Below are positions 350 to 30,286 of a stretch of DNA of 30,556 nucleotides, one piece after another. This stretch comes from a virus. Lineage: Duplodnaviria; Heunggongvirae; Uroviricota; Caudoviricetes. Numbering within the stretch: the first letter of the stretch is position 1; each line of letters opens with the position of its first letter. The stretch is taken from the IMG/VR virus record IMGVR_UViG_3300029886_000071. The stretch is one strand, 5' to 3'. The notes beneath the pieces were generated by a model. It saw nothing but the letters and a program-made list of their open reading frames with translations. It was not told the DNA's origin and made no database searches. The position numbers were made by a program, and so were the translations under genes.

Positions 350-366
350 TTTTGTGGAGAAAGTTG

Positions 367-723
367 ATGCGTGATATGTATGAAGTAATGGATCGTTGGG
401 GAGCTTGGGCTGCTTCAGACAATAGCGGAGTGGACTGGCAGCCGATAGCGGCTGGTTTCAAGGGACTTTTACCTCATGGCAAAAAGTCACGGATTCAGTG
501 TGATGATGACGAAGGCATCATGATAGACAGTTGTGTGGCTCGGTTGAGAAGGTATAAACCAGAGGAATATGAGCTCATCATCGCCCACTTTGTTATCGGT
601 ATCTCATTACGCACTATTGCGAAGAAGAGAAAATGCTCTGATGGCACAATTAGGAAGGAACTGCAAACTGCAATGGGGTTTGTTGACGGCTGTTTAGCAA
701 TGTTAGCTTATAGTATGGCATAA
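367..723 (+). CDS. Putative late-gene antiterminator (Q-like, small phage-82-type) with C-terminal HTH-like region
   Basis: ORF 352..723; ATG at 367 preceded by GGAGA. Position upstream of the lysis cassette; C-terminal EYELIIAHFVIGISLRTIAKKRKCSDGTIRKELQ resembles a sigma region-4 / LuxR-type helix-turn-helix. Family assignment is from memory. Confidence 0.5.
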   Translation: MRDMYEVMDRWGAWAASDNSGVDWQPIAAGFKGLLPHGKKSRIQCDDDEGIMIDSCVARLRRYKPEEYELIIAHFVIGISLRTIAKKRKCSDGTIRKELQTAMGFVDGCLAMLAYSMA

Positions 724-1917
724 AAAATAAAATAGATTTACTGCCGATTTTTCAAAAAAGACTGGGAACTGTTTATATCCAACGTAAATAAGGCCTCCAT
801 AAAACATGGCTGATGCGAGATATTTAACAGTTCTCATCCTTTTTTTAGCTTTATCAATCAAACCTGTAATGCTACTCTTAATACTATCTGCATTATCTTT
901 GATTTCTTTATTTTCTTCAAACTTTAAATACTTATCGAAAGCGGACTCCACTCGAGAACGTAAGTTGTCGAATGTTTCATTGAATATCTCAATAGAAATG
1001 TAATTGACTTTTTTTATCATCCAAAGTCCTGCGATAATCAATATTGCCTCGGTTGTTTCATTAGCCTTCACTAAGCCACCAGCAGCTATTAATGCACCGG
1101 GAATAGTCAATGCTTTTGTCTGATTAGATGATATGAATTCGTTAATTTTACTCGTGAACTCAAGATTTTTCTCATCGAGTTCGTTAAGAATTTTATTTAC
1201 AGAAAACCTCTTTGTGTAAATCTCATATAGTTCATCATATTTTTTCCTGACGAGTTCAGTAGAGTTAAGCAAGTCAAAGAAATTGAACGTACCATTTGCT
1301 TTAAATACTTCGTTTATGGCTGAGCGTATAACGAGCTTGCGCTCGCTTTTGTGTAAATCATTGATTTTTATTGTGTCGAGAAGCTCCTTTATAATTTCAT
1401 ATTTAAGAGACGAGTTCGATAAGCGATTAATCTCGCTATATTGTAAAAAATGCGTGAGTTCGACTGTATAACTTTTGTCTTCATTGGTGAAAAATAAGAC
1501 AGAGCAGTCACTGTTATGATGATCAGCAATTAATGAAAGGATATCTTTCCACATAAAGAAAATATGGATTTTTTCGATGCTTTCATTCTTAGAAGTAGGG
1601 AGTATTAACGGCGTTCCGATGATATAATTTTTCGGAAGAGCGTTTTGGGTGTTTACTCTAGACCAAAAAGACTCAACATTCTCATAAATTATAGCGTCAT
1701 CCCAAGATGAAGCTTGGCGATCTAGCCAAATTTCATTATTTTCGATGCAGGTTGTTGCCTTTTTATAACCTATAGATTGTAACAGTCTAATTATTTCAGA
1801 ACTATTTACAATAACAATGCTTTCTTCAAGACTTATGACAGTGTAGTAGCCCTCAACTCTGCTTGAGGCTCCGTTAATAATCTGCGCTAATCTTGATAAG
1901 TCATCAGCAATTGTCAT
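703..1917 (-). CDS. Hypothetical protein with C-terminal hydrophobic helices (cargo gene B, downstream gene of a two-gene operon); candidate effector
   Basis: 404-aa ORF, AT-rich; start codon 2 bp downstream of the stop of the 1920..3095 gene on the same strand; hydrophobic segments ALTIPGALIAAGGLV, AILIIAGLWMI and YLASAMFYGGLIYVGY near the C-terminus; K/E-rich predicted helical region. Confidence 0.75.
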   Translation of the reverse strand: MTIADDLSRLAQIINGASSRVEGYYTVISLEESIVIVNSSEIIRLLQSIGYKKATTCIENNEIWLDRQASSWDDAIIYENVESFWSRVNTQNALPKNYIIGTPLILPTSKNESIEKIHIFFMWKDILSLIADHHNSDCSVLFFTNEDKSYTVELTHFLQYSEINRLSNSSLKYEIIKELLDTIKINDLHKSERKLVIRSAINEVFKANGTFNFFDLLNSTELVRKKYDELYEIYTKRFSVNKILNELDEKNLEFTSKINEFISSNQTKALTIPGALIAAGGLVKANETTEAILIIAGLWMIKKVNYISIEIFNETFDNLRSRVESAFDKYLKFEENKEIKDNADSIKSSITGLIDKAKKRMRTVKYLASAMFYGGLIYVGYKQFPVFFEKSAVNLFYFLCHTIS

Positions 1918-1919
1918 TA

Positions 1920-3095
1920 TTAGCTGTCTCTATATCTTTTGAGTTCATCATAATTTGCCTGACTCAATTTTATCACAATTTCGCATTTGTTGTCAGTGAG
2001 AATTACAGGCTTATTTGACTTTTCGTCTCCAATAGCTCCACGCATTATTTTCAACTTAAAATTATTGTCGTTATCTGCCACTTCAATTGTAAGCGCGCTT
2101 TCAGCTGCTTTAGGAGTTGGTTCAAATTGAGGGTCAATCTGGAAACCATTAAGATTAACAAAATCGACAAACGTTCCCTTACATTTGTGTGAATCAGTCA
2201 GGCATGAGTCAATTATTTTTGAAATATCCTCTATCTTAACGGACTTATTTCCGTGTTTATCTTTTGATTTTTTTTCCAGTAAGGATTTAACTTCGTTGTC
2301 AATAGTATCACGCAGTACACGACCGAGTGAGTTTTTACTAGCAAAAATATCTATAGCACTGAATAATTGCTGAATGCTTCTTTTATTGTCCGAATCATGT
2401 CGGCAACCTAATGAGTCTTTGAAAAAATCGCTTTTAGATTTACCTTGCAAGAAATGTACATATGAGTCACCCTTGTTTTCTGGATAACTGGCTTCGAATA
2501 AAGTTAAATCGAACATCGCAGCCTGCCGTAAGGCATCGGTATTAATTGGATTTAATCTTGTTGGGGTCAACTTATCCGAATCAAAGTCATAGGCGCTTTG
2601 TTTATCAACCATTACGATTAGAAGTTTCCCCAAATCCTCTGGTTCGGTAGACTTATAGTGGATGAAAACAACGCTCCCCCCCTGAAGTTGGGCAACTCTC
2701 GATTCGTTATTAGCATTATGTTTAAGCTTCTCTATTATAGCTCTAGATAAATCAATGAATTCATTATTTTTATTAATGTATTTTTTTAGGATCGTAGGAA
2801 TGGATGAAGGGTTGTGATCTGAGTCTAGGAAGTTATGAAATTTGTTTTTTCGGCTAAATTTTTTCTCAATTCTGGTTATGAATTCAGATGTGACTTCATT
2901 TTTTAGATCCCAAACTTCACCTAATCGATAATCAAATGCTCTTGAATCATTTTTTTCAAGATTTGCTGTTACAGCACCAATAGGAAAGTACGATTGTTTG
3001 CCCAGCACTACAACATGAGGCGTGGCACCGCATTTATCGCAAGCTACAGTTGGGTCGTCAAGAACATTGCCACATTCTAAACAAGTTATATCCAT
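1920..3095 (-). CDS. Zinc-ribbon protein with NdpA/YejK-like (NA37) nucleoid-associated domain (cargo gene A, upstream gene of a two-gene operon)
   Basis: 391-aa ORF, AT-rich; N-terminal CLECG...(12 aa)...CDKCG zinc-ribbon motif; motifs GGSVVFIHY and YVHFLQGKSKSDFFKDSLG match my recollection of the YejK/NdpA family ([31 protein letters not shown]). Confidence 0.75.
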   Translation of the reverse strand: MDITCLECGNVLDDPTVACDKCGATPHVVVLGKQSYFPIGAVTANLEKNDSRAFDYRLGEVWDLKNEVTSEFITRIEKKFSRKNKFHNFLDSDHNPSSIPTILKKYINKNNEFIDLSRAIIEKLKHNANNESRVAQLQGGSVVFIHYKSTEPEDLGKLLIVMVDKQSAYDFDSDKLTPTRLNPINTDALRQAAMFDLTLFEASYPENKGDSYVHFLQGKSKSDFFKDSLGCRHDSDNKRSIQQLFSAIDIFASKNSLGRVLRDTIDNEVKSLLEKKSKDKHGNKSVKIEDISKIIDSCLTDSHKCKGTFVDFVNLNGFQIDPQFEPTPKAAESALTIEVADNDNNFKLKIMRGAIGDEKSNKPVILTDNKCEIVIKLSQANYDELKRYRDS

Positions 3096-3212
3096 TATAT
3101 ATCCCGAATTATAAGAATGAATTTTTATGTGGCTGAAAATTCTATCAAAACACTAACGCGTACGCAAAAAGTATTGTATTGTGTTAAGAGTGGTTACTTC
3201 GCCACACAGCTT

Positions 3213-3245
3213 AAACCCGCCGTCGAGCGGGTTTTGTCGTTTCTG
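3213..3245 (+). terminator. Intrinsic terminator-like hairpin upstream of the holin gene; candidate tR'-type late terminator
   Basis: AAACCCGC-CGTCGA-GCGGGTTT stem-loop followed by TGTCGTTTCT on the plus strand. Confidence 0.4.
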
Positions 3246-3386
3246 GGCCTGGGGATTCGTTGGGCCTAGTCTATCCCGCAGTTATCCATTGGCTCGGCTT
3301 CTTTGACGTTTCCGCTTCTGATTTGCGGTACATGATGTTTCCTCAATTTGCACCTGCTGTATCAGCGAGGTGAGAGATAACTACAA

Positions 3387-3713
3387 ATGCCTCATAACCC
3401 AAATACTTGGCTGGAGTTGGTCCAGAGCTGGTGGCGTGGAGACACACCGCTGGGCGCAGTGATTATGTCGATCGTTATGGCTGGCTTGCGCATTGCCTAT
3501 TTTGGCGGTGGTGGTGGCTGGAAGAGAAAAACGCTCGAGATTTTGCTCTGTGGCGCTCTGACGCTGACCTTTGCATCCGCTCTTGAATATGTCGGATGGC
3601 CTAAATCGCTTTCTGTTGCCATTGGTGGTGGCGTGGGGCTGATCGGTGTCGATGCTATTCGTGGGGCTGCAATGCGAGTAATCGGTAACAAATTTGGTAG
3701 CTCGAAGGAGTAA
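3387..3713 (+). CDS. S: Holin, lambda S family
   Basis: 108-aa ORF with hydrophobic helices and charged C-terminus; pattern LRIAYFGGGGGW...ILLCGALTLTF parallels lambda S; directly upstream of the endolysin. Confidence 0.8.
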   Translation: MPHNPNTWLELVQSWWRGDTPLGAVIMSIVMAGLRIAYFGGGGGWKRKTLEILLCGALTLTFASALEYVGWPKSLSVAIGGGVGLIGVDAIRGAAMRVIGNKFGSSKE

Positions 3714-3716
3714 TTT

Positions 3717-4193
3717 ATGCAGGCACTAAATTCCCAGCGTAAAGCTTTCCTGGATATGGTGGCATGGTCAGAAGGAACGGATAACGGGCGACAACCGACA
3801 CGTAACCACGGTTATGATGTTATTGTTGGTGGCGAACTGTTCACTGATTACTCCGATCACCCTCGCAAACTTGTCACGCTAAACCCCAAACTCAAATCAA
3901 CAGCTGCCGGACGTTACCAGCTTCTTTCACGCTGGTGGGATGCTTACCGTAAACAGCTTGGCCTGAAAGATTTTTCTCCAGAAAGCCAGGACGCTGTAGC
4001 TCTGCAGCAGATTAAAGAGCGTGGTGCTTTACCGATGATTGACCGCGGCAGTATTCGTCAGGCAATCGACCGTTGCAGCAATATCTGGGCGTCGTTACCT
4101 GGTGCAGGTTACGGTCAGTATGAACATAAAATCGGTGACCTGATTGCCCGATTTAAAAAAGCTGGTGGGGTAGTAAATGAAGCTGAGATATAA
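3717..4193 (+). CDS. R: Endolysin, lambda R-type lytic transglycosylase
   Basis: Translation (QRKAFLDMVAWSEGTDNGRQPTRNHGYDVIVGGELFTDYSDHPRKLVTLNPKLKSTAAGRYQLLSRWWDAYRKQLGLKDFSP...) is near-identical to lambda R as I recall it; GGAG RBS. Confidence 0.92.
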   Translation: MQALNSQRKAFLDMVAWSEGTDNGRQPTRNHGYDVIVGGELFTDYSDHPRKLVTLNPKLKSTAAGRYQLLSRWWDAYRKQLGLKDFSPESQDAVALQQIKERGALPMIDRGSIRQAIDRCSNIWASLPGAGYGQYEHKIGDLIARFKKAGGVVNEAEI

Positions 4194-4569
4194 GCTGGTT
4201 ATTGTTGCCTTCGTTGTTAGCGTCATTGGTTCCTTCATCTGGTCTGCTGGACATTACTACAGCAAATATCAGCACGAAAAGGAGCGTGCTGATGAGGCTG
4301 TACGAAATGCTGAATCAGCAACTGCCATTACCCGTAACGTTCTGCAATCACTGCAAATCATCAATACAGTTATAGAGGCTAACCAGCATGCAAAACAGCA
4401 GATCGCACTGGAGTCACAGAGAACCCAGGAAGATATCAAAGTGGCTGTTGCGGATGATGATTGTGCTTCAAGTCATGTGCCTGCTGCCGCTGCTGACCGG
4501 TTGCGGAAGTACGCGAACAGTTTACGTGCCGGTTCCGGCGGTACCGCTGCCAACAAGCCTGACCACTGA
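4177..4569 (+). CDS. Rz: i-spanin (Rz-like)
   Basis: 130-aa ORF overlapping the end of R; N-terminal TM helix (LVIVAFVVSVIGSFIW) then coiled-coil-like periplasmic domain; lambdoid position after R. Confidence 0.8.
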   Translation: MKLRYKLVIVAFVVSVIGSFIWSAGHYYSKYQHEKERADEAVRNAESATAITRNVLQSLQIINTVIEANQHAKQQIALESQRTQEDIKVAVADDDCASSHVPAAAADRLRKYANSLRAGSGGTAANKPDH

Positions 4570-4711
4570 AACGCCCCAGCCAGTCATTCCCGACCCGCTG
4601 ACCTATGGGGCCAGTCTGGATCTGAATGTGAGCCTGCTTTCGGCGCTGGGCCAGTGCAACATCGACAAGGCCAGTATCAGGAAGATAGAAACGTCACGCA
4701 ACTCACAGTAG
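4454..4711 (+). CDS. Rz1: o-spanin lipoprotein (Rz1-like), overlapping the 3' end of Rz in another frame
   Basis: ORF 4388..4711 contains MMIVLQVMCLLPLLTGC lipobox-type signal followed by a proline-rich sequence (PVPAVPLPTSLTTETPQPVIPDP) typical of Rz1. Confidence 0.6.
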   Translation: MMIVLQVMCLLPLLTGCGSTRTVYVPVPAVPLPTSLTTETPQPVIPDPLTYGASLDLNVSLLSALGQCNIDKASIRKIETSRNSQ

Positions 4712-4750
4712 CCATTACAAAGCTCATCTGCGGGTGGGCTTTGTAATGGC

Positions 4751-5050
4751 TTATTCGTAGTTGTCACCAGGGAAGTATTCCTGAAACTTTGATTTTGGGA
4801 GCTGGGTTTTCGCGAAGTTCGCAAGCCTTCCTCTTGTAAGCATGTAGTCACACCCACCTTCTTGTTTGAGAAGGTCACCAGCTAATGTCCGATACACAAC
4901 GTCACTTCGCAAAATTTCAATGGTGGAATTCCTGATGAGAAATGTTTCACACATCGGGCATCTAATTAACCAAGCGGTATCACGGTTCTGCCAGGTCGCA
5001 TCTGAATTGCAAGCCGGGCAGCATTTCTGATCTTCTTGTCCTATGACCAT
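4751..5050 (-). CDS. Small hypothetical zinc-ribbon protein (moron candidate) between lysis and packaging genes
   Basis: ORF 4751..5056 on the minus strand; second ATG (5048..5050) has better RBS spacing; CCPAC...(18 aa)...CPMC motif; opposite strand to all flanking phage genes. Confidence 0.5.
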   Translation of the reverse strand: MVIGQEDQKCCPACNSDATWQNRDTAWLIRCPMCETFLIRNSTIEILRSDVVYRTLAGDLLKQEGGCDYMLTRGRLANFAKTQLPKSKFQEYFPGDNYE

Positions 5051-5129
5051 TGTCATGCTCTCGCATAGTGAAGGAATTTTCAGATTAACTCATTTTCAGA
5101 CGCATCGTAATGGCTTAAGGAAACAATTA

Positions 5130-5480
5130 ATGCCACCACGTACACCAAAAGCCTGCCGCGTTCGCGGTTGCCGCCATACCACAACTGACCCGTCAGGCTA
5201 TTGCGAAAGCCACAAAAGCGAAGGCTGGAAGCAATACAAACCAGGCCTGTCACGTCATCAGCGCGGTTACGGTTCGAAGTGGGATACCATCCGTGAACGT
5301 GTGCTGAAGCGTGACAAAGGCCTGTGTCAGTTATGTCTGCGTTCTGGTGTGGTGCGTGAGGCGAAAACCGTTGACCACATCATCCCTAAAGCGCATGGCG
5401 GCACTGATGCTGACAGTAATCTGCAGAGTCTGTGCTGGCCGTGCCATAAGGCGAAGACGGCCCGTGAACGGTTAAAGTGA
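5130..5480 (+). CDS. HNH homing-type endonuclease associated with the terminase
   Basis: ORF 5043..5480; ATG 5130 has AAGGA RBS; cysteine/histidine motifs (CRVRGCRH...CESH, DHIIPKAHGG, CWPCHKAK); position just upstream of terminase as in HK97-like phages. Confidence 0.8.
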   Translation: MPPRTPKACRVRGCRHTTTDPSGYCESHKSEGWKQYKPGLSRHQRGYGSKWDTIRERVLKRDKGLCQLCLRSGVVREAKTVDHIIPKAHGGTDADSNLQSLCWPCHKAKTARERLK

Positions 5481-5506
5481 TAATAATTCTCAACTGTCTG
5501 AGGGGA

Positions 5507-5567
5507 GGGGCGGGTCAAATCCCTGTGACCTGACGTCTTCCGGACTGCCCGCCCCATCGTTTTTTTA
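5507..5567 (+). other. GC-rich 8-bp inverted repeat (GGGGCGGG ... CCCGCCCC) followed by a T7 run; putative cos-region structure and/or terminator
   Basis: Seen in the HNH-terminase intergenic region, where HK97-type phages carry cos. Confidence 0.3.
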
Positions 5568-5605
5568 TACCCGCGAAAAATGAAATTTAACCAGGAGTGC
5601 CGCAT

Positions 5606-6100
5606 ATGGCTGGAACGGCGGGGCGTTCCGGGCGTCGCCCCAAGCCAACGGCGCGCAAGGCGCTGGCCGGAAACCCCGGCAAGCGAGCCCTGAACAAAGA
5701 TGAACCCGTTTTTACGCCCATCAAAGGTGTTGAGCCACCGGAGTGGTTCGCTGAAGAAGAGCTCCCTCTCGCCACGATCATGTGGCAACTGACAACCAAA
5801 GAACTCTGCGGTCAGGGCCTGCTGTGCGTGACTGACCTCGCAGTGCTTGAGCGGTGGTGCGTAGCCTATGAGTTCTGGCGACGTGCTGTGAAAAATATTG
5901 CCAGACAGGGCAACACCATCACCGGTGCAATGGGCGGCATGGTCAAAAATCCGGAGCTGACCGCCAAAAAAGAACAGGAGTCCGAGATGAGCAGTACGGG
6001 GGCAATGCTCGGACTCGACCCCAGCAGCCGCCAGCGTCTGATTGGCCTGGCGGGGCAGAAGAAAGCCACTAACCCGTTTCTGAAAATTATCGAATCATGA
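5606..6100 (+). CDS. Terminase small subunit
   Basis: ORF 5597..6100; ATG 5606 preceded by AGGAG; immediately upstream of and overlapping the large terminase gene; basic N-terminus. Confidence 0.8.
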
Positions 6101-7830
6101 GCCGGAAATCTTACCCCAACGTAAATGCTGCCAATCAGTATGCCCGGGATGTCGTGCGCGGAAAGATTGTGGCCTGCCAGTTTGTGATTCAGGCCTGCCA
6201 GCGCCATCTTGATGACCTGATGGCGGAAAAAAGTAAGTCGTTTCGTTTCCGCTTCGACAAGGACCTGGCTGAACGGGCCGCCAAATTTATTCAGCTGTTG
6301 CCGCACACCAAGGGTGAGTGGGCATTCAAGAGGATGCCCATCACGCTGGAGCCGTGGCAGCTCTTTGTGATCTGCTGCGCGTTTGGCTGGGTCAATAAAG
6401 GCTCCCGGCTGCGCCGCTTCCGGGAGGTGTATACCGAAATCCCCCGTAAGAACGGCAAATCGGCAATCTCTGCCGGTGTCGCCCTGTATTGTTTTGCCTG
6501 TGATAACGAGTTCGGCGCGGAAGTGTATTCCGGTGCCACGACGGAGAAACAGGCATGGGAAGTCTTTCGTCCGGCAAGACTGATGTGTAAACGCACACCC
6601 ATGCTGACGGAAGCGTTCGGGATTGAGGTTAACGCCTCAAACATGAATCGTCCGGAGGATGGCGCGCGGTTTGAACCGCTGATCGGTAACCCCGGTGATG
6701 GTTCATCACCCCACTGTGCGGTGGTGGATGAATATCACGAGCACGCCACCGATGCGCTTTACACCACGATGCTTACCGGGATGGGGGCGCGACGTCAGCC
6801 ACTGATGTGGGCCATTACTACTGCCGGGTACAACATTGAGGGGCCGTGCTACGACAAGCGGCGGGAAGTTATCGAGATGCTCAACGGGTCGGTACCCAAC
6901 GATGAACTGTTCGGGATCATCTATACCGTTGACGAAGGCGATGACTGGACCGACCCGCAGGTGCTGGAAAAAGCTAACCCGAATATTGGCGTGTCGGTTT
7001 ATCGCGAATTTTTGTTAAGTCAGCAGCAGCGTGCGAAAAATAACGCCCGTCTGGCAAACGTCTTTAAAACAAAACACCTCAATATCTGGGTGTCGGCGCG
7101 TTCGGCGTATTTCAACCTGGTGAGCTGGCAGAGCTGCGAGGATAAATCACTGACCCTTGAGCAGTTCGAGGGGCAGCCGTGCATTCTGGCCTTTGACCTG
7201 GCGCGTAAGCTGGATATGAACAGCATGGCGCGACTTTATACCCGCGAGATTGACGGTAAAACGCATTACTACAGTGTGGCCCCGCGTTTTTGGGTACCGT
7301 ATGACACGGTGTACAGCGTCGAGAAAAATGAAGATCGACGGACAGCCGAACGCTTTCAGAAATGGGTGGAAATGGGCGTTCTGACCGTTACCGATGGTGC
7401 GGAGGTGGATTATCGCTACATCCTCGAGGAGGCCAAAGCGGCGAACAAAATCAGCCCGGTCAGTGAGTCACCCATCGACCCCTTCGGGGCGACCGGGTTG
7501 TCACATGACCTTGCTGATGAAGACCTGAACCCCATCACTATCATTCAGAACTACACCAACATGTCCGACCCGATGAAAGAGCTGGAAGCGGCAATTGAAT
7601 CGGGGCGCTTTCATCATGATGGCAATTCCATCATGACCTGGTGTATCGGCAACGTGGTCGGCAAAACCATTCCGGGTAACGATGATGTGGTGAAGCCCGT
7701 CAAAGAGCAGGCGGAAAACAAAATCGATGGTGCAGTTGCGCTGATTATGGCGGTTGGCAGAGCCATGATGTACGAGAAAGAAGACACGCTGTCTGACCAC
7801 ATTGAGTCCTATGGGATCCGCTCGCTTTAA
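6097..7830 (+). CDS. Terminase large subunit
   Basis: 577-aa ORF; P-loop-like PRKNGKS; acidic DEYHEH motif; start overlaps the small-subunit stop (ATGA). Confidence 0.9.
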
Positions 7831-24152: not shown

Positions 24153-25610
24153 TTATTTGACGTAAATGTGGTTTCTGTATTTGACAAAAATCACATCACA
24201 CACGCTTTCAATATCTTCAGGTTGACCATAAATTTTCTTCACAATATTCAATTGTTCTTTATTCTCAAGAATAAAGAAATTATTTCCTTTGTTATACCAT
24301 TCGCTATTTGTAAGCCAGTTATCTCTTTTTATTTCATTGTTATTAAAAAGTATATTTGCTATTTTTATGTCTCCATTCACACCAACAGAGTTAGTAAATG
24401 TGAAAGGGGCATATCCATAATTTGCTTTGTGCTCGTTGATTTTTTCTCTAATACATGACATCTGATTGTATCTATTATCAGTGGAGCCATTAATATTTAT
24501 TGTTTTAATTCCTGATATTATACCCAAAAAAGCTATTAATAAAATAATGCTTTTTTTATTAAATTTAGATCTTGACAAAAGAATTACTGCCATAATGAAG
24601 ACGGGAACAAGGTATCTTATTGTCCATATATTTCTTGGGAGGTTACTACCAATATAAGCAGATGTCATGATTAAAATAGACAATGACAAACATATATCAA
24701 TAACGCTTCTGTTTTTAAAAAGATTTCTGAAAGTGAAGTAAATTAATGCAACAACACCAGCAAAGCGTATTGCTTTAGATAATAGATGCAGTGATGGTGT
24801 TATTTGCTCACCAAATATGTTTGCATTAAAAAACAATAAAGTTCCGCTTACTGCAGTATTTATATTAACTAAAATATTGTCATACTCAACAATCTTTACA
24901 TCTGTTAGTCCTGGCAATGTAAAGCTTCCAAGGTTTAAAAACAAAAAACCGATCGCCTTGGAAATTAAATATGAAGAAAACAATCCAGCCATTATAATAA
25001 GGTATTTCTTTTTTCTTTCCTTGTGCAACAAAAATATTGCTGCTAATGTTAGCGGTGCAACGTATATATAGACTGAGATATTATCGCTAAAAATAGCCAT
25101 AGAGGATAGTATGGTTGAAAAGTATACAAATAATATATTTTCTGTTTTAATATACTTTTCTGTAAATATTAAGCATCCAATGATAAATATGTATGTACCC
25201 ATGTGAATGCACGCTGAAAGCATTGATGTAACAGCCATGTCAGCAGGGAAAACAAAGTAGAATATAATTAGCGCTAATGCTAATGATTTATTTGTAGACA
25301 GCCTGTATATCAAAAATATCACAGTAGCATACATCGCTGGTGGTATTATATATGCAAGCTCACTGCTGTAGCCAAATAATATAGAGGCGATCGCATAAAA
25401 AGATACTTCTGTAAAGTAAAAAGGAACCGTGGATAGCATCCATCCATGAAGTAAGTAATTACCTTCTGACATATCCTTACCAAGCAAAAGCACTGTTGCC
25501 GCATCTGTATTTGGTGGGAATATGTTTAAGCTGGCAAAGTGATATAGCATAAACAATGACGCAAATAATAAAATCACGAATATAAATTTAATTTGTTTTT
25601 TGAAAATCAT
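24153..25610 (-). CDS. GtrC-like serotype-specific O-antigen glucosyltransferase (polytopic membrane protein)
   Basis: 485-aa very AT-rich ORF with many hydrophobic helices; third gene of the operon after gtrA and gtrB with 1-nt overlap with gtrB. Confidence 0.7.
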   Translation of the reverse strand: MIFKKQIKFIFVILLFASLFMLYHFASLNIFPPNTDAATVLLLGKDMSEGNYLLHGWMLSTVPFYFTEVSFYAIASILFGYSSELAYIIPPAMYATVIFLIYRLSTNKSLALALIIFYFVFPADMAVTSMLSACIHMGTYIFIIGCLIFTEKYIKTENILFVYFSTILSSMAIFSDNISVYIYVAPLTLAAIFLLHKERKKKYLIIMAGLFSSYLISKAIGFLFLNLGSFTLPGLTDVKIVEYDNILVNINTAVSGTLLFFNANIFGEQITPSLHLLSKAIRFAGVVALIYFTFRNLFKNRSVIDICLSLSILIMTSAYIGSNLPRNIWTIRYLVPVFIMAVILLSRSKFNKKSIILLIAFLGIISGIKTININGSTDNRYNQMSCIREKINEHKANYGYAPFTFTNSVGVNGDIKIANILFNNNEIKRDNWLTNSEWYNKGNNFFILENKEQLNIVKKIYGQPEDIESVCDVIFVKYRNHIYVK

Positions 25611-26527
25611 TATTTATTACCCTTTAATATATACTTTGGACGCTGCTTAACCTCAACGTAGATACGCCCTATGTACTCACCTAGCACTCCAATCCCAATT
25701 AACTGGATGCCGCCAAGAAATAATATTGATACAAGAATTGAAGGGTATCCAGGTACATTATTACCAAAAATTAATTTATCAATTATCATCCATGAACCGT
25801 ATGTAAATGATATACATGCAATAAATAACCCAATATAGGTCCACATGCGAAGCGGGAATGTTGAGAAGCTAGTGATCCCTTCCAGCGCCAAGTTCCATAG
25901 CTTCCATCCATTGAACTTTGTGCTTCCTGCAACGCGTTCTGCTCGCGCATATTCTACGACATCGGTTCGACCACCAACCCAGCTCAGCACACCCTTCATA
26001 AACAGGTTTCGTTCTGGCATGAGCTTAATATTTTCTACTACTTCGCGAGACATGAGCCGGAAGTCGCCAACATTCTCTTCTATCTGAGGGTTGCTGATTT
26101 TGTTATGAAGTTTATAGAACCACTCAGCAGATTTACGCTTCAGCCTGCTGTCAGTGGAGCGGTCAGAGCGTTTAGCCAGAACCATATCTGCACCGGCCTG
26201 CCATTTCTCTATCAAGTGAGGAATAACTTCGATAGGGTCTTGCAGATCAACGTCAATCGGGATAATTGCCTCCCCGGTAGCATGGTCCAGACCTGCGAAC
26301 AGGGCGGGTTCTTTGCCGAAGTTACGTGTGAACGACAGCGAAACCACAAGCGGGTCGGCAACAGCGAGCTCGTTGATTATTGATTCTGTAGCGTCTTTGC
26401 TGCCATCGTTTATGAAGACTATCTCGACTTCATGCTGCTGAAGCCCTTCAAATTCGCGCACAGTTTTATAAAAAATAGGTATCGTGGCCTCTTCGTTAAA
26501 GACCGGAACGACTAAAGAAATTTTCAT
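25610..26527 (-). CDS. gtrB: Bactoprenol glucosyltransferase GtrB
   Basis: 305-aa ORF; N-terminal GT2 domain ([11 protein letters not shown]...INDGSKD...) and C-terminal TM helices; 4-nt overlap with gtrA. Confidence 0.9.
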
Positions 26528-26886
26528 TTCGCATCCCTAAAGACAATGAACTTTGAATAGACGAAACCGCACACCAGGCTGATGGCGGAGAAGGTGACAA
26601 GAGTTATCATCGGGGGAAGTGCGCATCTATCAGCAGCCCATCCAACAGTAGCACTGAGTGTTCCCATGAACCCGACATATAACATGTAGCGCATCGTTGT
26701 AGTTGATGCTTTGAATGTGAATTTTGCATTCGCGAAGAAGCTAAAACTCACAGCCACAACGAAACCTGCGAAGTTTGCCAGAGCCTGATTGGTATGCGCG
26801 GCATAGATACATACACCAAAAACCACCCAGTGTATAAGTGTGTTCAGCACACCAATCGAGGTGTACCTTGCAAATATATTTAACAT
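26524..26886 (-). CDS. gtrA: GtrA flippase-like small membrane protein
   Basis: 120-aa four-helix hydrophobic ORF; sequence closely matches my recollection of K-12 YfdG (GtrA family); first gene of the operon next to attR. Confidence 0.9.
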
Positions 26887-27334: not shown

Positions 27335-27811
27335 TTAACTAAACATCGCAGTAATCGAGGCGCTTGCCAGAGAATGGAAATGGACGTTAAACCCGACCAT
27401 CGCGCCGCTGGCACCTTCATCGACATCAATACGTTCTACATCCAGCGCGTGAACGGTAAAAATGTAGCGATGGGTTTCGCCTTTCGGCGGCGCTGCACCA
27501 TCGTACCCGGTTTTACCAAAGTCGGTACGCGTCTGCAAAACGCCGTCTGGCATTGCTACCAGACCAGAGCCAAACCCTTGCGGTAATACGCGGGTATCAG
27601 CGGGTAAATTAACAACTACCCAGTGCCACCAGCCGGAGCCGGTTGGCGCATCCGGGTCGTAGCAGGTGACAACAAAACTTTTCGTTCCCGCAGGAACATC
27701 ATCCCACGCCAGATGCGGTGAAACATTATCGCCATCGTAACCCATGCCGTTAAAGACATGACGATGTGGCAACTTATCGCCATCGCGCAGATCATTACTG
27801 ATGAGTTTCAT
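27335..27811 (-). CDS. ybhB: YbhB, PEBP-family (kinase inhibitor-like) protein
   Basis: 158-aa ORF matching E. coli YbhB as I recall it; chromosomal position next to bioA. Confidence 0.9.
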   Translation of the reverse strand: MKLISNDLRDGDKLPHRHVFNGMGYDGDNVSPHLAWDDVPAGTKSFVVTCYDPDAPTGSGWWHWVVVNLPADTRVLPQGFGSGLVAMPDGVLQTRTDFGKTGYDGAAPPKGETHRYIFTVHALDVERIDVDEGASGAMVGFNVHFHSLASASITAMFS

Positions 27812-27869
27812 GAACCCTCCTTTCTAGTTTGCAGAAAGTGTAGCCAGAAACCCTCACGCTGACTTCCCG

Positions 27870-29159
27870 TTATTGGCAAAAAAATGTTTCATCCTGCACC
27901 GCACGATTAACCGCTGCGGTCAGACGCTGCAACTGTTGCGGGAGAATAATATAGGGCGGCATCAGGTAAATCAGTTTGCCAAAAGGCCGGATCCAGACAC
28001 CCTGTTCGACAAAGAATTTTTGCAGCGCTGCCATATTCACCGGACGAGTGGTTTCGACCACGCCAATGGCCCCTAGCACGCGCACATCGGCAACCATTTT
28101 GGCATCACGGGCTGGTGCCAGTTGCTCGCGCAGTTGTACTTCAATAGCCACCACCTGCTGCTGCCAGTCGCCAGATTCGAGAATCGCCAGGCTGGCGTTT
28201 GCTGCCGCGCAGGCTAGCGGATTGCCCATAAAAGTTGGCCCATGCATAAAGCAACCGGCTTCGCCGTTACTGATGGTTTCCGCAACCTCGCGCGTGGTGA
28301 GTGTGGCGGAAAGGGTCATTGTACCGCCGGTTAAGGCTTTACCGAGGCACAAAATGTCCGGCGCGATATCTGCATGTTCACAGGCAAACAGTTTGCCAGT
28401 ACGACCAAATCCGGTGGCGATCTCGTCGGCAATCAGCAAGATACCTTCGCGATCGCACATTTTGCGGATTCGTTTTAACCATTCCGGATGGTAGATGCGC
28501 ATCCCGCCTGCGCCCTGGACAATCGGTTCAATGATCACCGCCGCGATTTCATGACGATGCGCCGCCATCAGGCGGGCAAAGCCCACCATATCGCGCTCAT
28601 CCCATTCACCATCCATGCGGCTTTGCGGGGCGGGAGCAAACAAGTTTTCTGGCAGATAGCCTTTCCACAGACTGTGCATTGAGTTATCCGGATCGCACAC
28701 CGACATCGCGCCAAAGGTATCGCCATGATAACCATTGCGGAAGGTCAGAAAACGCTGGCGCGCTTCGCCTTTGGCTTGCCAGTACTGCAACGCCATTTTC
28801 ATCGCCACTTCCACCGCTACGGAACCGGAGTCCGCGAGAAAAACGCATTCCAGCGGTTGCGGCGTCATTGCCACCAGTTTGCGGCACAGCTCAATGGCTG
28901 GCGCATGGGTGATACCGCCAAACATCACATGCGACATGGCATCAATTTGCGACTTCATCGCCGCATTAAGCTGCGGGTGATTGTAACCGTGGATCGCCGC
29001 CCACCAGGACGACATACCGTCAACCAGGCGTCTGCCGTCAGACAAAATTAGCTCGCAACCTTCGGCGCTCGCCACCGGATAAACCGGTAGCGGGGAGGTC
29101 ATGGATGTGTATGGGTGCCAGATATGGCGTTGGTCAAAGGCAAGATCGTCCGTTGTCAT
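27870..29159 (-). CDS. bioA: Adenosylmethionine-8-amino-7-oxononanoate aminotransferase
   Basis: ORF 27870..29270; conserved BioA begins [17 protein letters not shown] at the internal ATG, giving 429 aa; divergent from bioB. Confidence 0.95.
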
Positions 29160-29245
29160 AATCGACTTGTAAACCAAATTGAAAAGATTTAGGTTTACGA
29201 GTCTACACCGAATTAACAACAAAAAACACGTTTTGGAGAAGCCCC
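29160..29245. promoter_or_regulatory. bioA-bioB divergent promoter region with bio operator (BirA binding palindrome)
   Basis: CTTGTAAACCAAATTGAAAAGATTTAGGTTTACGAG imperfect palindrome between the divergent bioA and bioB starts. Confidence 0.7.
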
Positions 29246-30286
29246 ATGGCTCACCGCCCACGCTGGACATTGTCGCAAGTCACAGAATTATTTGAAAAAC
29301 CGTTGCTGGATCTGCTGTTTGAAGCGCAGCAGGTGCATCGTCAGCATTTCGATCCACGTCAGGTGCAGGTCAGCACTTTGCTGTCAATTAAGACCGGAGC
29401 TTGTCCGGAAGATTGCAAATACTGCCCGCAAAGCTCGCGCTACAAAACCGGGCTGGAAGCCGAGCGGTTGATGGAAGTTGAACAGGTGCTGGAGTCGGCG
29501 CGCAAAGCGAAAGCGGCAGGATCGACGCGCTTCTGCATGGGCGCGGCGTGGAAGAATCCCCACGAACGCGATATGCCCTACCTGGAACAAATGGTGCAGG
29601 GAGTAAAAGCGATGGGGCTGGAGGCGTGTATGACGCTGGGTACGTTGAGTGAATCTCAGGCGCAGCGCCTTGCGAATGCCGGGCTGGATTACTACAACCA
29701 CAACCTCGACACCTCGCCGGAGTTTTACGGCAATATCATCACCACACGCACTTATCAGGAACGCCTCGATACGCTGGAAAAAGTGCGCGATGCCGGGATC
29801 AAAGTCTGCTCAGGTGGCATTGTGGGTTTAGGCGAAACGGTAAAAGATCGCGCCGGATTATTACTGCAACTGGCAAACCTGCCGACGCCGCCGGAAAGCG
29901 TGCCAATCAACATGCTCGTGAAGGTGAAAGGTACTCCACTGGCAGATAACGATGATGTCGATGCCTTTGATTTTATTCGCACCATTGCCGTAGCGCGGAT
30001 CATGATGCCGACCTCTTACGTGCGCCTTTCTGCCGGACGCGAGCAGATGAACGAACAGACTCAGGCGATGTGCTTTATGGCCGGGGCTAACTCGATTTTC
30101 TACGGTTGCAAACTGCTAACCACGCCGAATCCGGAAGAAGATAAAGACCTGCAACTGTTCCGCAAACTGGGGCTAAATCCACAGCAAACTGCCGTGCTGG
30201 CAGGGGATAACGAACAACAGCAGCGTCTGGAGCAGGCACTGATGACCCCGGACACTGACGAATATTACAACGCGGCAGCACTATGA
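29246..30286 (+). CDS. bioB: Biotin synthase
   Basis: 346-aa ORF; radical-SAM motif CPEDCKYC; sequence matches E. coli BioB. Confidence 0.95.

Follow-up and report, generated by a model that had tools for sequence, protein, structure and literature searches.

The pair of genes examined here occupies positions 703-3095 of a 30,556-nt stretch of DNA (hereafter, the window) from a virus of the class Caudoviricetes (Duplodnaviria; Heunggongvirae; Uroviricota; IMG/VR record IMGVR_UViG_3300029886_000071), and the described systems closest to it are DS-1 and type II PANGU. DS-1 was reported in the DefensePredictor study of DeWeirdt, Mahoney and Laub (bioRxiv, January 2025; Science, 2026; PMC13092281) as transcription unit D390 of E. 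coli, located at 220602-222994 of NZ_RRVY01000002.1 (2393 bp; Table S6, also Tables S8 and S11). The products of that unit are given as WP_000355468.1 (nucleoid-associated, 391 aa) and WP_000150292.1 (hypothetical, 404 aa). When cloned, the unit protects E. coli MG1655 against phages Bas1, Bas26, Bas3, T3, T5 and T7, and the YejK domain that it encodes is listed by its authors among those "not previously validated in defense" (PMC13092281). In the Table S7 rows for D390 (n=7; system flagged as replicated), the -log10 of the efficiency of plating was 7.60 for Bas1 (~10^7.6-fold), 2.70 for Bas26, 1.70 for both Bas3 and T3, 1.0 for T5, 0.92 for T7 and ~0 for SECphi27, with small plaques recorded for Bas26, Bas3, T3, T7 and SECphi27 (PMC13092281). 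The genomic slot of the system is not described in that paper (PMC13092281).

PANGU was defined in a preprint by Li et al., 2026 (bioRxiv 10.64898/2026.04.06.716658). In the model presented there, a YejK-like protein sits on the nucleoid, is freed when phage nucleases (T4 EndoII) degrade the host DNA, and then binds and activates an effector by way of an acidic "DNA-mimicking" (DMK) domain; the effector of type I is a toxSAS enzyme, while type II consists of Pag2A, the YejK-like protein, and Pag2B, which carries an acidic domain at its N-terminus and a transmembrane region at its C-terminus (10.64898/2026.04.06.716658). For the type II system of uropathogenic E. coli (PANGU-Ecu), both genes were reported to be needed, neither was toxic alone and the phenotype was abortive; in addition, Pag2A bound the acidic domain at 19 nM, and Pag2A fused to green fluorescent protein departed from the nucleoid during T4 infection (10.64898/2026.04.06.716658). 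YejK itself is a dimeric DNA clamp with a basic, 30-Å pore, no sequence preference and an affinity that grows with DNA length (PMC11229321).

Identity of the locus with DS-1

Both products of the locus were recognized by NCBIfam models (release 20) of the equivalog type that are specific to DS-1. The 391-aa protein scored 451.4 bits against NF053868 (DS1_1_antiphage, "nucleoid-associated anti-phage protein"; cutoff 330, profile positions 3-369 of 369), and the 404-aa protein scored 375.2 bits against NF053869 (DS1_2_antiphage, "anti-phage protein"; cutoff 315, profile positions 1-337 of 337). The 391-aa translation was identical to the sequence in Table S8 of the DefensePredictor paper, the 404-aa translation was identical to its counterpart over the 399 residues printed there (PMC13092281), and both were identical to the RefSeq coding sequences WP_000355468.1 and WP_000150292.1 of NZ_CP104371.1, to which the Prokaryotic Genome Annotation Pipeline has given the names "nucleoid-associated anti-phage protein" and "anti-phage protein". 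The segment 703-3095 has the same length as the D390 unit, 2393 bp, and the same gene order, and the proteins do not differ; the published unit originates in a different E. coli strain. On the strength of its sequence, the locus is certainly DS-1, a published and named system, and we refer to the two proteins as DS-1A and DS-1B; recognizing it from the window was a correct re-discovery, not the finding of a new system.

A preliminary description of this DNA, made from the sequence alone, had proposed that the pair was an undescribed defense or exclusion system. The defense function was borne out, as the identical sequences protect E. coli (PMC13092281), whereas the claim of novelty was not, since each protein has an equivalog model of its own and the pair is a confident match to a named defense family. 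No model in PADLOC-DB v2.0.0 (2023) matched either protein at E <= 1, because that library predates DS-1, and the pair therefore looks unknown to older catalogues. Since DS-1 is published, named and propagated into RefSeq annotation, there is little new here for discovery; what the locus does illustrate is that a real defense system can be recognized from raw sequence, the fold call having been correct and the reading as sensor plus membrane effector probably so.

The two open reading frames (ORFs) of the cassette lie on the minus strand (Table 1), both begin with ATG, and they are separated by 2 nt (1918-1919), which fall between the stop codon of the 391-aa ORF (1920-1922) and the ATG of the 404-aa ORF (1915-1917). 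The Q-family ORF and the 404-aa gene converge and share 21 bp (703-723), an overlap also present in the RefSeq annotation of the identical locus. The GC content of 703-3095 was 0.349, versus 0.491 at 1-702 and 0.550 at the late genes (3387-23800), and the sole other stretch of the window that was comparably AT-rich was a gtr cluster (0.373). The layout given in the preliminary description, namely the ORF pair with its 2-bp gap, the 21-bp overlap with Q, the AT-richness and the Q and holin flanks, was in every point reproduced by the ORF list, the GC profile and Pfam. Promoter-like hexamers upstream of DS-1A were found by a consensus scan and are consensus matches only. Rfam identified no RNA families in the window, and no transfer RNAs (tRNAs) were found in it.

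Table 1. Positions of the DS-1 cassette, its protein domains and other features of the window.
Feature	Position	Strand	Size or residues	Evidence and remarks
Q-family antiterminator	352..723	+		Pfam PF06530 (Phage_antitermQ), E 3.2e-47; RefSeq annotation
DS-1B	703..1917	-	404 aa	WP_000150292.1, "anti-phage protein"
DS-1B third hydrophobic helix	769..822	-	residues 366-383	
DS-1B most conserved core	925..1260	-	residues 220-331	Long helix, short helix, long return helix
DS-1B hydrophobic helical hairpin	1000..1113	-	residues 269-306	Kyte-Doolittle peaks at 269 and 290
DS-1B N-terminal alpha/beta domain	1261..1917	-	residues 1-219	Mildly acidic; modelled at pLDDT ~87-95
DS-1A	1920..3095	-	391 aa	WP_000355468.1, YejK-like nucleoid-associated anti-phage protein
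DS-1A NA37/YejK domain	1968..2906	-	residues 64-376	Pfam PF04245, E 1.2e-23
DS-1A zinc ribbon, CxxC...CxxC	3030..3083	-	C5, C8, C19, C22	N-terminal; read from sequence
DS-1A upstream region	3096..3150	-		TTGATA-16-AAAAAT at 3148>3121; TATAAT 14 nt before ATG; GGGA Shine-Dalgarno-like motif
Conserved non-coding element	3143..3235	+		Terminator-like hairpin at 3213-3234 plus T-run; right boundary of the cargo slot
Lambda-family holin	3387..3713	+		First late lysis gene; Pfam PF05106, E 5.7e-25; RefSeq annotation
O-antigen glucosylation module	24153-26886	-	120, 305 and 485 aa	gtrA, gtrB (GT2) and type-specific gene; GC 0.373

Features of the two proteins

DS-1A scored 84.5 bits against the Pfam family NA37 (PF04245; gathering cutoff 24.6), matched PHROG 3767 ("nucleoid associated protein") and, in a phmmer search of the PDB, matched E. 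coli YejK (9be2) with an E-value of 1.2e-9. An AlphaFold2 model built with 31 homologues had a mean predicted local distance difference test score (pLDDT) of 83.6, and the sole significant match to it in Foldseek was again 9be2 (E 3.7e-15, probability 1.00, ~19% identity). The NA37/YejK fold had been called earlier from the motifs GGSVVFIHY and YVHFLQGKSKSDFFKDSLG, both of which were found within the 391-aa translation, and the Pfam score and the fold match show that call to be correct. In contrast, DS-1A reached only 81.4 bits with the YejK equivalog model NF001557, far under its cutoff of 341, and is a diverged paralogue, distinct from the housekeeping YejK. The NA37 fold is common to both proteins; DS-1A differs from E. 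coli YejK in its added zinc ribbon, its location on a prophage, its AT-rich composition and its operon shared with an effector. A basic patch of DS-1A corresponds to part of the pore cluster of YejK (R173/R176/K177): K219 of DS-1A aligns with R176, the conserved K221 and K226 lie nearby, and R173 falls in an alignment gap. Proteins of the NdpA/YejK type that are ~20% identical to DS-1A were also found in Pseudomonas phages of the F116 group (F116, H66, LKA5, phiC725A and others) and in two P. protegens phages.

The N-terminal zinc ribbon noted in the preliminary description is real: the CxxC...CxxC pattern is visible in the sequence, Pfam Zn_Ribbon_1 gave a weak match (E 0.07), and the HHpred analysis of the DefensePredictor authors assigned residues 3-26 to a NinF-type zinc ribbon at 86% (PMC13092281). 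The stretch was modelled at low confidence (pLDDT 56-69). Its four cysteines are kept across the enterobacterial clade down to ~40% identity, members P0140 and P0161 included. A Pseudomonas-like clade has an acidic tail in place of the ribbon and retains the partner gene (locus L010), so that the ribbon is a clade-specific addition outside the core of the system.

No Pfam family was found for DS-1B; the protein matched phrog_5023 (2e-158), for which no function is annotated, and matches to SWIB and IsdE (E ~0.06-0.09, far under the respective cutoffs) were dismissed as noise. A domain annotation of the protein was looked for in Table S8 of the DefensePredictor paper and none was found in the part of that table that was covered (PMC13092281). 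The AlphaFold2 model (35 homologues; mean pLDDT 86.3) consisted, beyond the N-terminal domain, of helices at residues 220-268, 271-284, 288-331, 337-383 and 385-403. Conservation across the family peaked at residues 226-284 (RFSVNK.LNEL...TSKINE..SS.QTKALTIPGALIA.G), which hold most of the invariant or near-invariant columns and cover the last part of the first long helix together with the first hydrophobic stretch. Three hydrophobic stretches of ~15-18 residues each (269-284, 290-306 and 366-383) were conserved, and the third was found to be more hydrophobic elsewhere in the family, with a minimum of -2.4 kcal/mol on the Hessa scale. Residues 1-219 have a net charge of -8 and an isoelectric point of 5.16, and the N-terminal domain was acidic in 35 of 35 family members (net charge -1 to -19).

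Probable mechanism by comparison with type II PANGU

DS-1 resembles type II PANGU in several respects. Each is a two-gene operon with an E. coli example, in which a YejK-like protein adjoins an effector; DS-1A is a YejK-like nucleoid-associated protein (NA37, 84.5 bits; fold 9be2), as the definition of type II requires; and the 2-bp gap between same-strand genes lies within the <40 bp set for neighboring genes of type II, the pair being arranged likewise in 12 of 12 homologous loci. The effectors may be alike in their N-terminal domain, acidic in Pag2B and mildly so in DS-1B, and in their C-terminal region, transmembrane in Pag2B and marginally hydrophobic in DS-1B, and both systems occur on mobile elements and in defense islands. 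They are unlike in how they were expressed, PANGU-Ecu having been induced with isopropyl β-D-thiogalactopyranoside and DS-1 having been driven by its native promoter, and the text of the PANGU preprint does not contain the word "zinc" and so makes no mention of a ribbon like that of DS-1A.

Because DS-1 combines a YejK paralogue, a coupled partner, an acidic domain and hydrophobic helices, we take a mechanism like that of type II PANGU as the best explanation, and by analogy it is a probable one. In such a scheme, DS-1A dimers would clamp chromosomal DNA and would come off once the nucleoid is degraded, or disrupted in some other way, by an infecting phage. T3, T7 and T5, all within the recorded range, are known to degrade host DNA, which speaks for this scheme. 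The freed DS-1A would bind the acidic N-terminal domain of DS-1B, whereupon the module made of the long helix and the hydrophobic hairpin would be released to insert into, or oligomerize in, the inner membrane, and growth arrest or death of the infected cell would forestall the production of phage progeny (abortive infection). The glycine-rich, marginally hydrophobic hairpin, set at the tip of a long coiled-coil, may be a conditionally inserting module that is harmless until DS-1A binds. By the same analogy we infer the sensor role of DS-1A, the effector role of DS-1B, the trigger and the action at the membrane. The preliminary reading of the pair as a DNA-binding sensor with a membrane effector is in agreement with the published type II PANGU model, and it is by this analogy that DS-1 can be linked to the PANGU mechanism.

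A number of observations weigh against this reading. The hydrophobic stretches of DS-1B are under standard transmembrane thresholds, with a Kyte-Doolittle maximum of 1.56 over 19 residues, and their unweighted Hessa sums are positive (+2 to +8 kcal/mol), i.e., marginal. The acidity of the N-terminal domain is only mild, far from that of classic DNA mimics. DS-1 was likened to Pag2A/Pag2B (Cluster 2) by their published description and not by sequence, and the recorded range of DS-1 has no row for T4, the phage on which PANGU-Ecu was assayed. The DefensePredictor paper, for its part, reports the phenotype of DS-1 and the YejK domain without mutation, dissection or mechanism (PMC13092281). Of the earlier claim that the partner acts on membranes, the C-terminal hydrophobic helices and the K/E-rich helix were indeed present, but the stretches are short and marginal on two scales. 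Taken together, the window carries DS-1 as antisense cargo of a serotype-converting lambdoid prophage, and we hold with moderate confidence that the system acts like type II PANGU.

Other explanations were weighed against this one. DS-1 may exclude phage directly and without cell death, with DS-1A clamping phage DNA as it enters or replicates, perhaps under the guidance of its zinc ribbon, and with DS-1B serving as a membrane anchor; the phage DNA would be sequestered, or its replication and transcription blocked, and the cell would survive. The YejK clamp can block topoisomerases (PMC11229321), and the ~10^7.6-fold protection against Bas1, for which zero plaques were recorded, fits immunity as well as it fits abortive infection. 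The zinc ribbon would then be an added module for binding nucleic acid or protein, without counterpart in the housekeeping YejK, but an entire clade that lacks it keeps the partner gene. In addition, YejK has no sequence preference (PMC11229321), which makes discrimination between phage and host DNA hard to explain, and the related PANGU systems are abortive (10.64898/2026.04.06.716658). We regard direct exclusion, in either of these forms, as unlikely.

The tight coupling of the genes, 2 bp apart, and the hydrophobic, helical nature of one product would also suit an arrangement resembling a toxin-antitoxin pair, a type to which many prophage abortive systems belong, in which DS-1B is a membrane toxin restrained by DS-1A and released by host shut-off or by turnover of DS-1A. 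Both the sizes (391 aa for the "antitoxin", 404 aa for the "toxin") and the gene order, with the "antitoxin" first, would be atypical of such a pair, no family of this kind was matched in Pfam, PADLOC or NCBIfam scans of both proteins, and in type II PANGU the genes are not toxic singly, both are required and the YejK-like protein is an activator (10.64898/2026.04.06.716658); we consider this arrangement quite improbable. The position of the cassette, convergent with Q with a 21-bp overlap and immediately before the region that probably holds the late promoter, raises a further alternative in which antisense transcription into the 3′ end of Q damps the late genes, or the YejK-like protein silences the prophage, and defense is secondary. 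The case for such self-regulation of the prophage is weakened by the protection conferred by an identical cassette from a plasmid in a strain without this prophage (PMC13092281) and by the occurrence of homologous pairs outside Q-holin slots, in defense islands and a P2-like prophage, and we give it almost no credence.

Distribution, the Q-holin slot and the prophage

At least 80% of the segment 600-3400 of the window was present in 106 of 5,426 complete E. coli genomes (~2%), and the best of these matches were 100% identical, with the same Q and holin flanks. Among 50,697 phage records (INPHARED), searched with the cassette by megablast and with DS-1B by tblastn, no phage was found to carry the cassette or a homologue of DS-1B. 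In E. coli strain S1-ZIM-01-A (NZ_CP145671.1) the match to 600-3400 was in two pieces, with an IS1 transposase annotated inside the cassette region, which points to an insertion and possible inactivation of DS-1. Two E. coli "plasmids" of PLSDB, CP088862.1 (35,406 bp) and NZ_CP146678.1 (64,057 bp), encode a DS-1B that is 100% identical, beside a Q gene; these records may represent phage genomes in circular or excised form, or products of assembly.

A profile search of 1.84 billion representatives returned 769 clusters at E <= 1e-3, a number that fell to 356 at <= 1e-10 and to 69 at <= 1e-30; almost all were ~400 aa long. The 69 clusters of a word-indexed search were all from Gammaproteobacteria except for one probably mis-binned contig. 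The latter (locus L002; JAATEZ010000277.1, 2,641 bp) is a short contig in a metagenome-assembled genome of Lactobacillales that holds the DS-1 pair at 38-48% identity; as the other close relatives are all from Gammaproteobacteria, it probably reflects a binning error rather than a true member from the Firmicutes. A DS-1A homologue was found directly upstream and on the same strand in 12 of 12 genome loci identified with the DS-1B profile (one truncated at a contig end and another seemingly degraded), with DS-1B identity down to 27%. Together with one remote member, these loci show that the two genes are conserved as a pair. The remote member, at 3890-6230 of locus L022, is a relative of DS-1B (profile E 2e-21) that an NA37 gene overlaps on its upstream side; it lies in a P2-like prophage, with the Ogr-side early genes to one side and tail gene D to the other. 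Phages of the P2 type are known to carry defense cargo in this neighborhood. In a Klebsiella pneumoniae prophage the homologous pair occupies the same slot between Q and the holin; in Serratia marcescens it stands beside a BstA_C protein in a recombinase-bearing island; and in Pseudoteredinibacter it shares an integrase island with AbiEii, AAA_21/AAA_15, DUF4145 and an SNF2-type helicase. These settings are of a defense type and count in favor of the explanation preferred above.

When the cassette was compared with phages by megablast, the right edge of the query alone matched. The matching element (75-115 bp, ~3122/3143-3235) was 82-96% identical in SfII, SfIV, Stx2 phages, mEp460 and lambda-like phages, the range over 3143..3235 being 90-96% in all of these but SfIV. 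A simple scan detected no plus-strand sigma-70 consensus in 3143-3235, and the segment matched no Rfam family. Because phages with unrelated cassettes have only this right-hand element in common, it is simplest to place the late promoter and leader within it, and the element is probably the leader or terminator of the late operon (pR'/tR'-like). A late promoter inside the cassette was rejected as less parsimonious, the phages with unrelated cassettes sharing only the element to the right. With the late promoter placed in the element, the DS-1 cassette would precede late transcription instead of occupying the position of stx, which is probable from position and conservation. The preliminary description had put the cassette in the slot where stx sits, which was imprecise: DS-1 is probably upstream of the late-promoter/terminator region and stx is downstream of it.

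The contents of this slot were compared between the window (724-3142) and related-phage loci L014 (AP012536.1), L020 (KC736978.1) and L021 (LR595868.1). In phage Stx2a_1447, which belongs to this set, the segment from Q to the element holds two unclassified minus-strand genes, encoding proteins of 179 aa (membrane-like) and 343 aa, and is followed by a methylase, tRNAs and stx2A. In mEp460 there is a single antisense gene of 308 aa, followed by two small ORFs, a DNA adenine methyltransferase and the holin. In Shigella phage SfII, whose backbone is closely related, the same antisense slot also holds a two-gene minus-strand cassette (SfII_49 and SfII_50), followed by the holin; this cassette was identified as the PADLOC candidate PDC-M53 (B, 2.8e-54; A, 2.1e-32), and its proteins are unrelated to those of DS-1, which match no PADLOC model. 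The stretch from the stop codon of Q to the conserved element thus looks like a hotspot for cargo or defense genes distinct from the stx position. These comparisons assign DS-1 to a definite prophage slot, in antisense orientation and bounded by Q and the probable late-promoter leader, and the other cassettes that related phages carry there make it a practical place in which to seek further systems.

A bolder proposal, which we offer tentatively and think somewhat unlikely, is that DS-1 represents a lineage apart from the type II PANGU example, with a YejK paralogue that bears a zinc ribbon, a conditionally inserting hairpin effector that stays soluble or peripheral before triggering and resembles an alpha-pore-former, and a trigger other than degradation of the T4 EndoII type, and that, separately, the Q-to-leader stretch is an unrecognized antisense defense hotspot in SfII-like and Stx lambdoid phages. 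The distinct trigger is proposed because the recorded range comprises Bas1, Bas3, Bas26, T3, T5 and T7, not T4.

The prophage of NZ_CP104371.1, which carries the identical locus, adjoins ybhC; its early region is lambdoid, and its tail module is contractile and Mu/SfV-like. In the window, the gtr module (Table 1) includes a 485-aa type-specific gene for which no Pfam match was found, and beyond the module lie the host genes ybhB, bioA and bioB (27335-30286). The window belongs to a serotype-converting, SfII-like prophage inserted at the lambda attachment site. A 101-aa antisense ORF with a CxxC...CxxC zinc ribbon was also observed at 4751-5056 (minus strand), in the interval that separates the spanin genes from the HNH/terminase genes. 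It belonged to no PADLOC or NCBIfam family and gave matches below threshold only (Lar restriction alleviation, E 0.005; YjdM zinc ribbon), and the ORF may be spurious or may be a second, small cargo gene.

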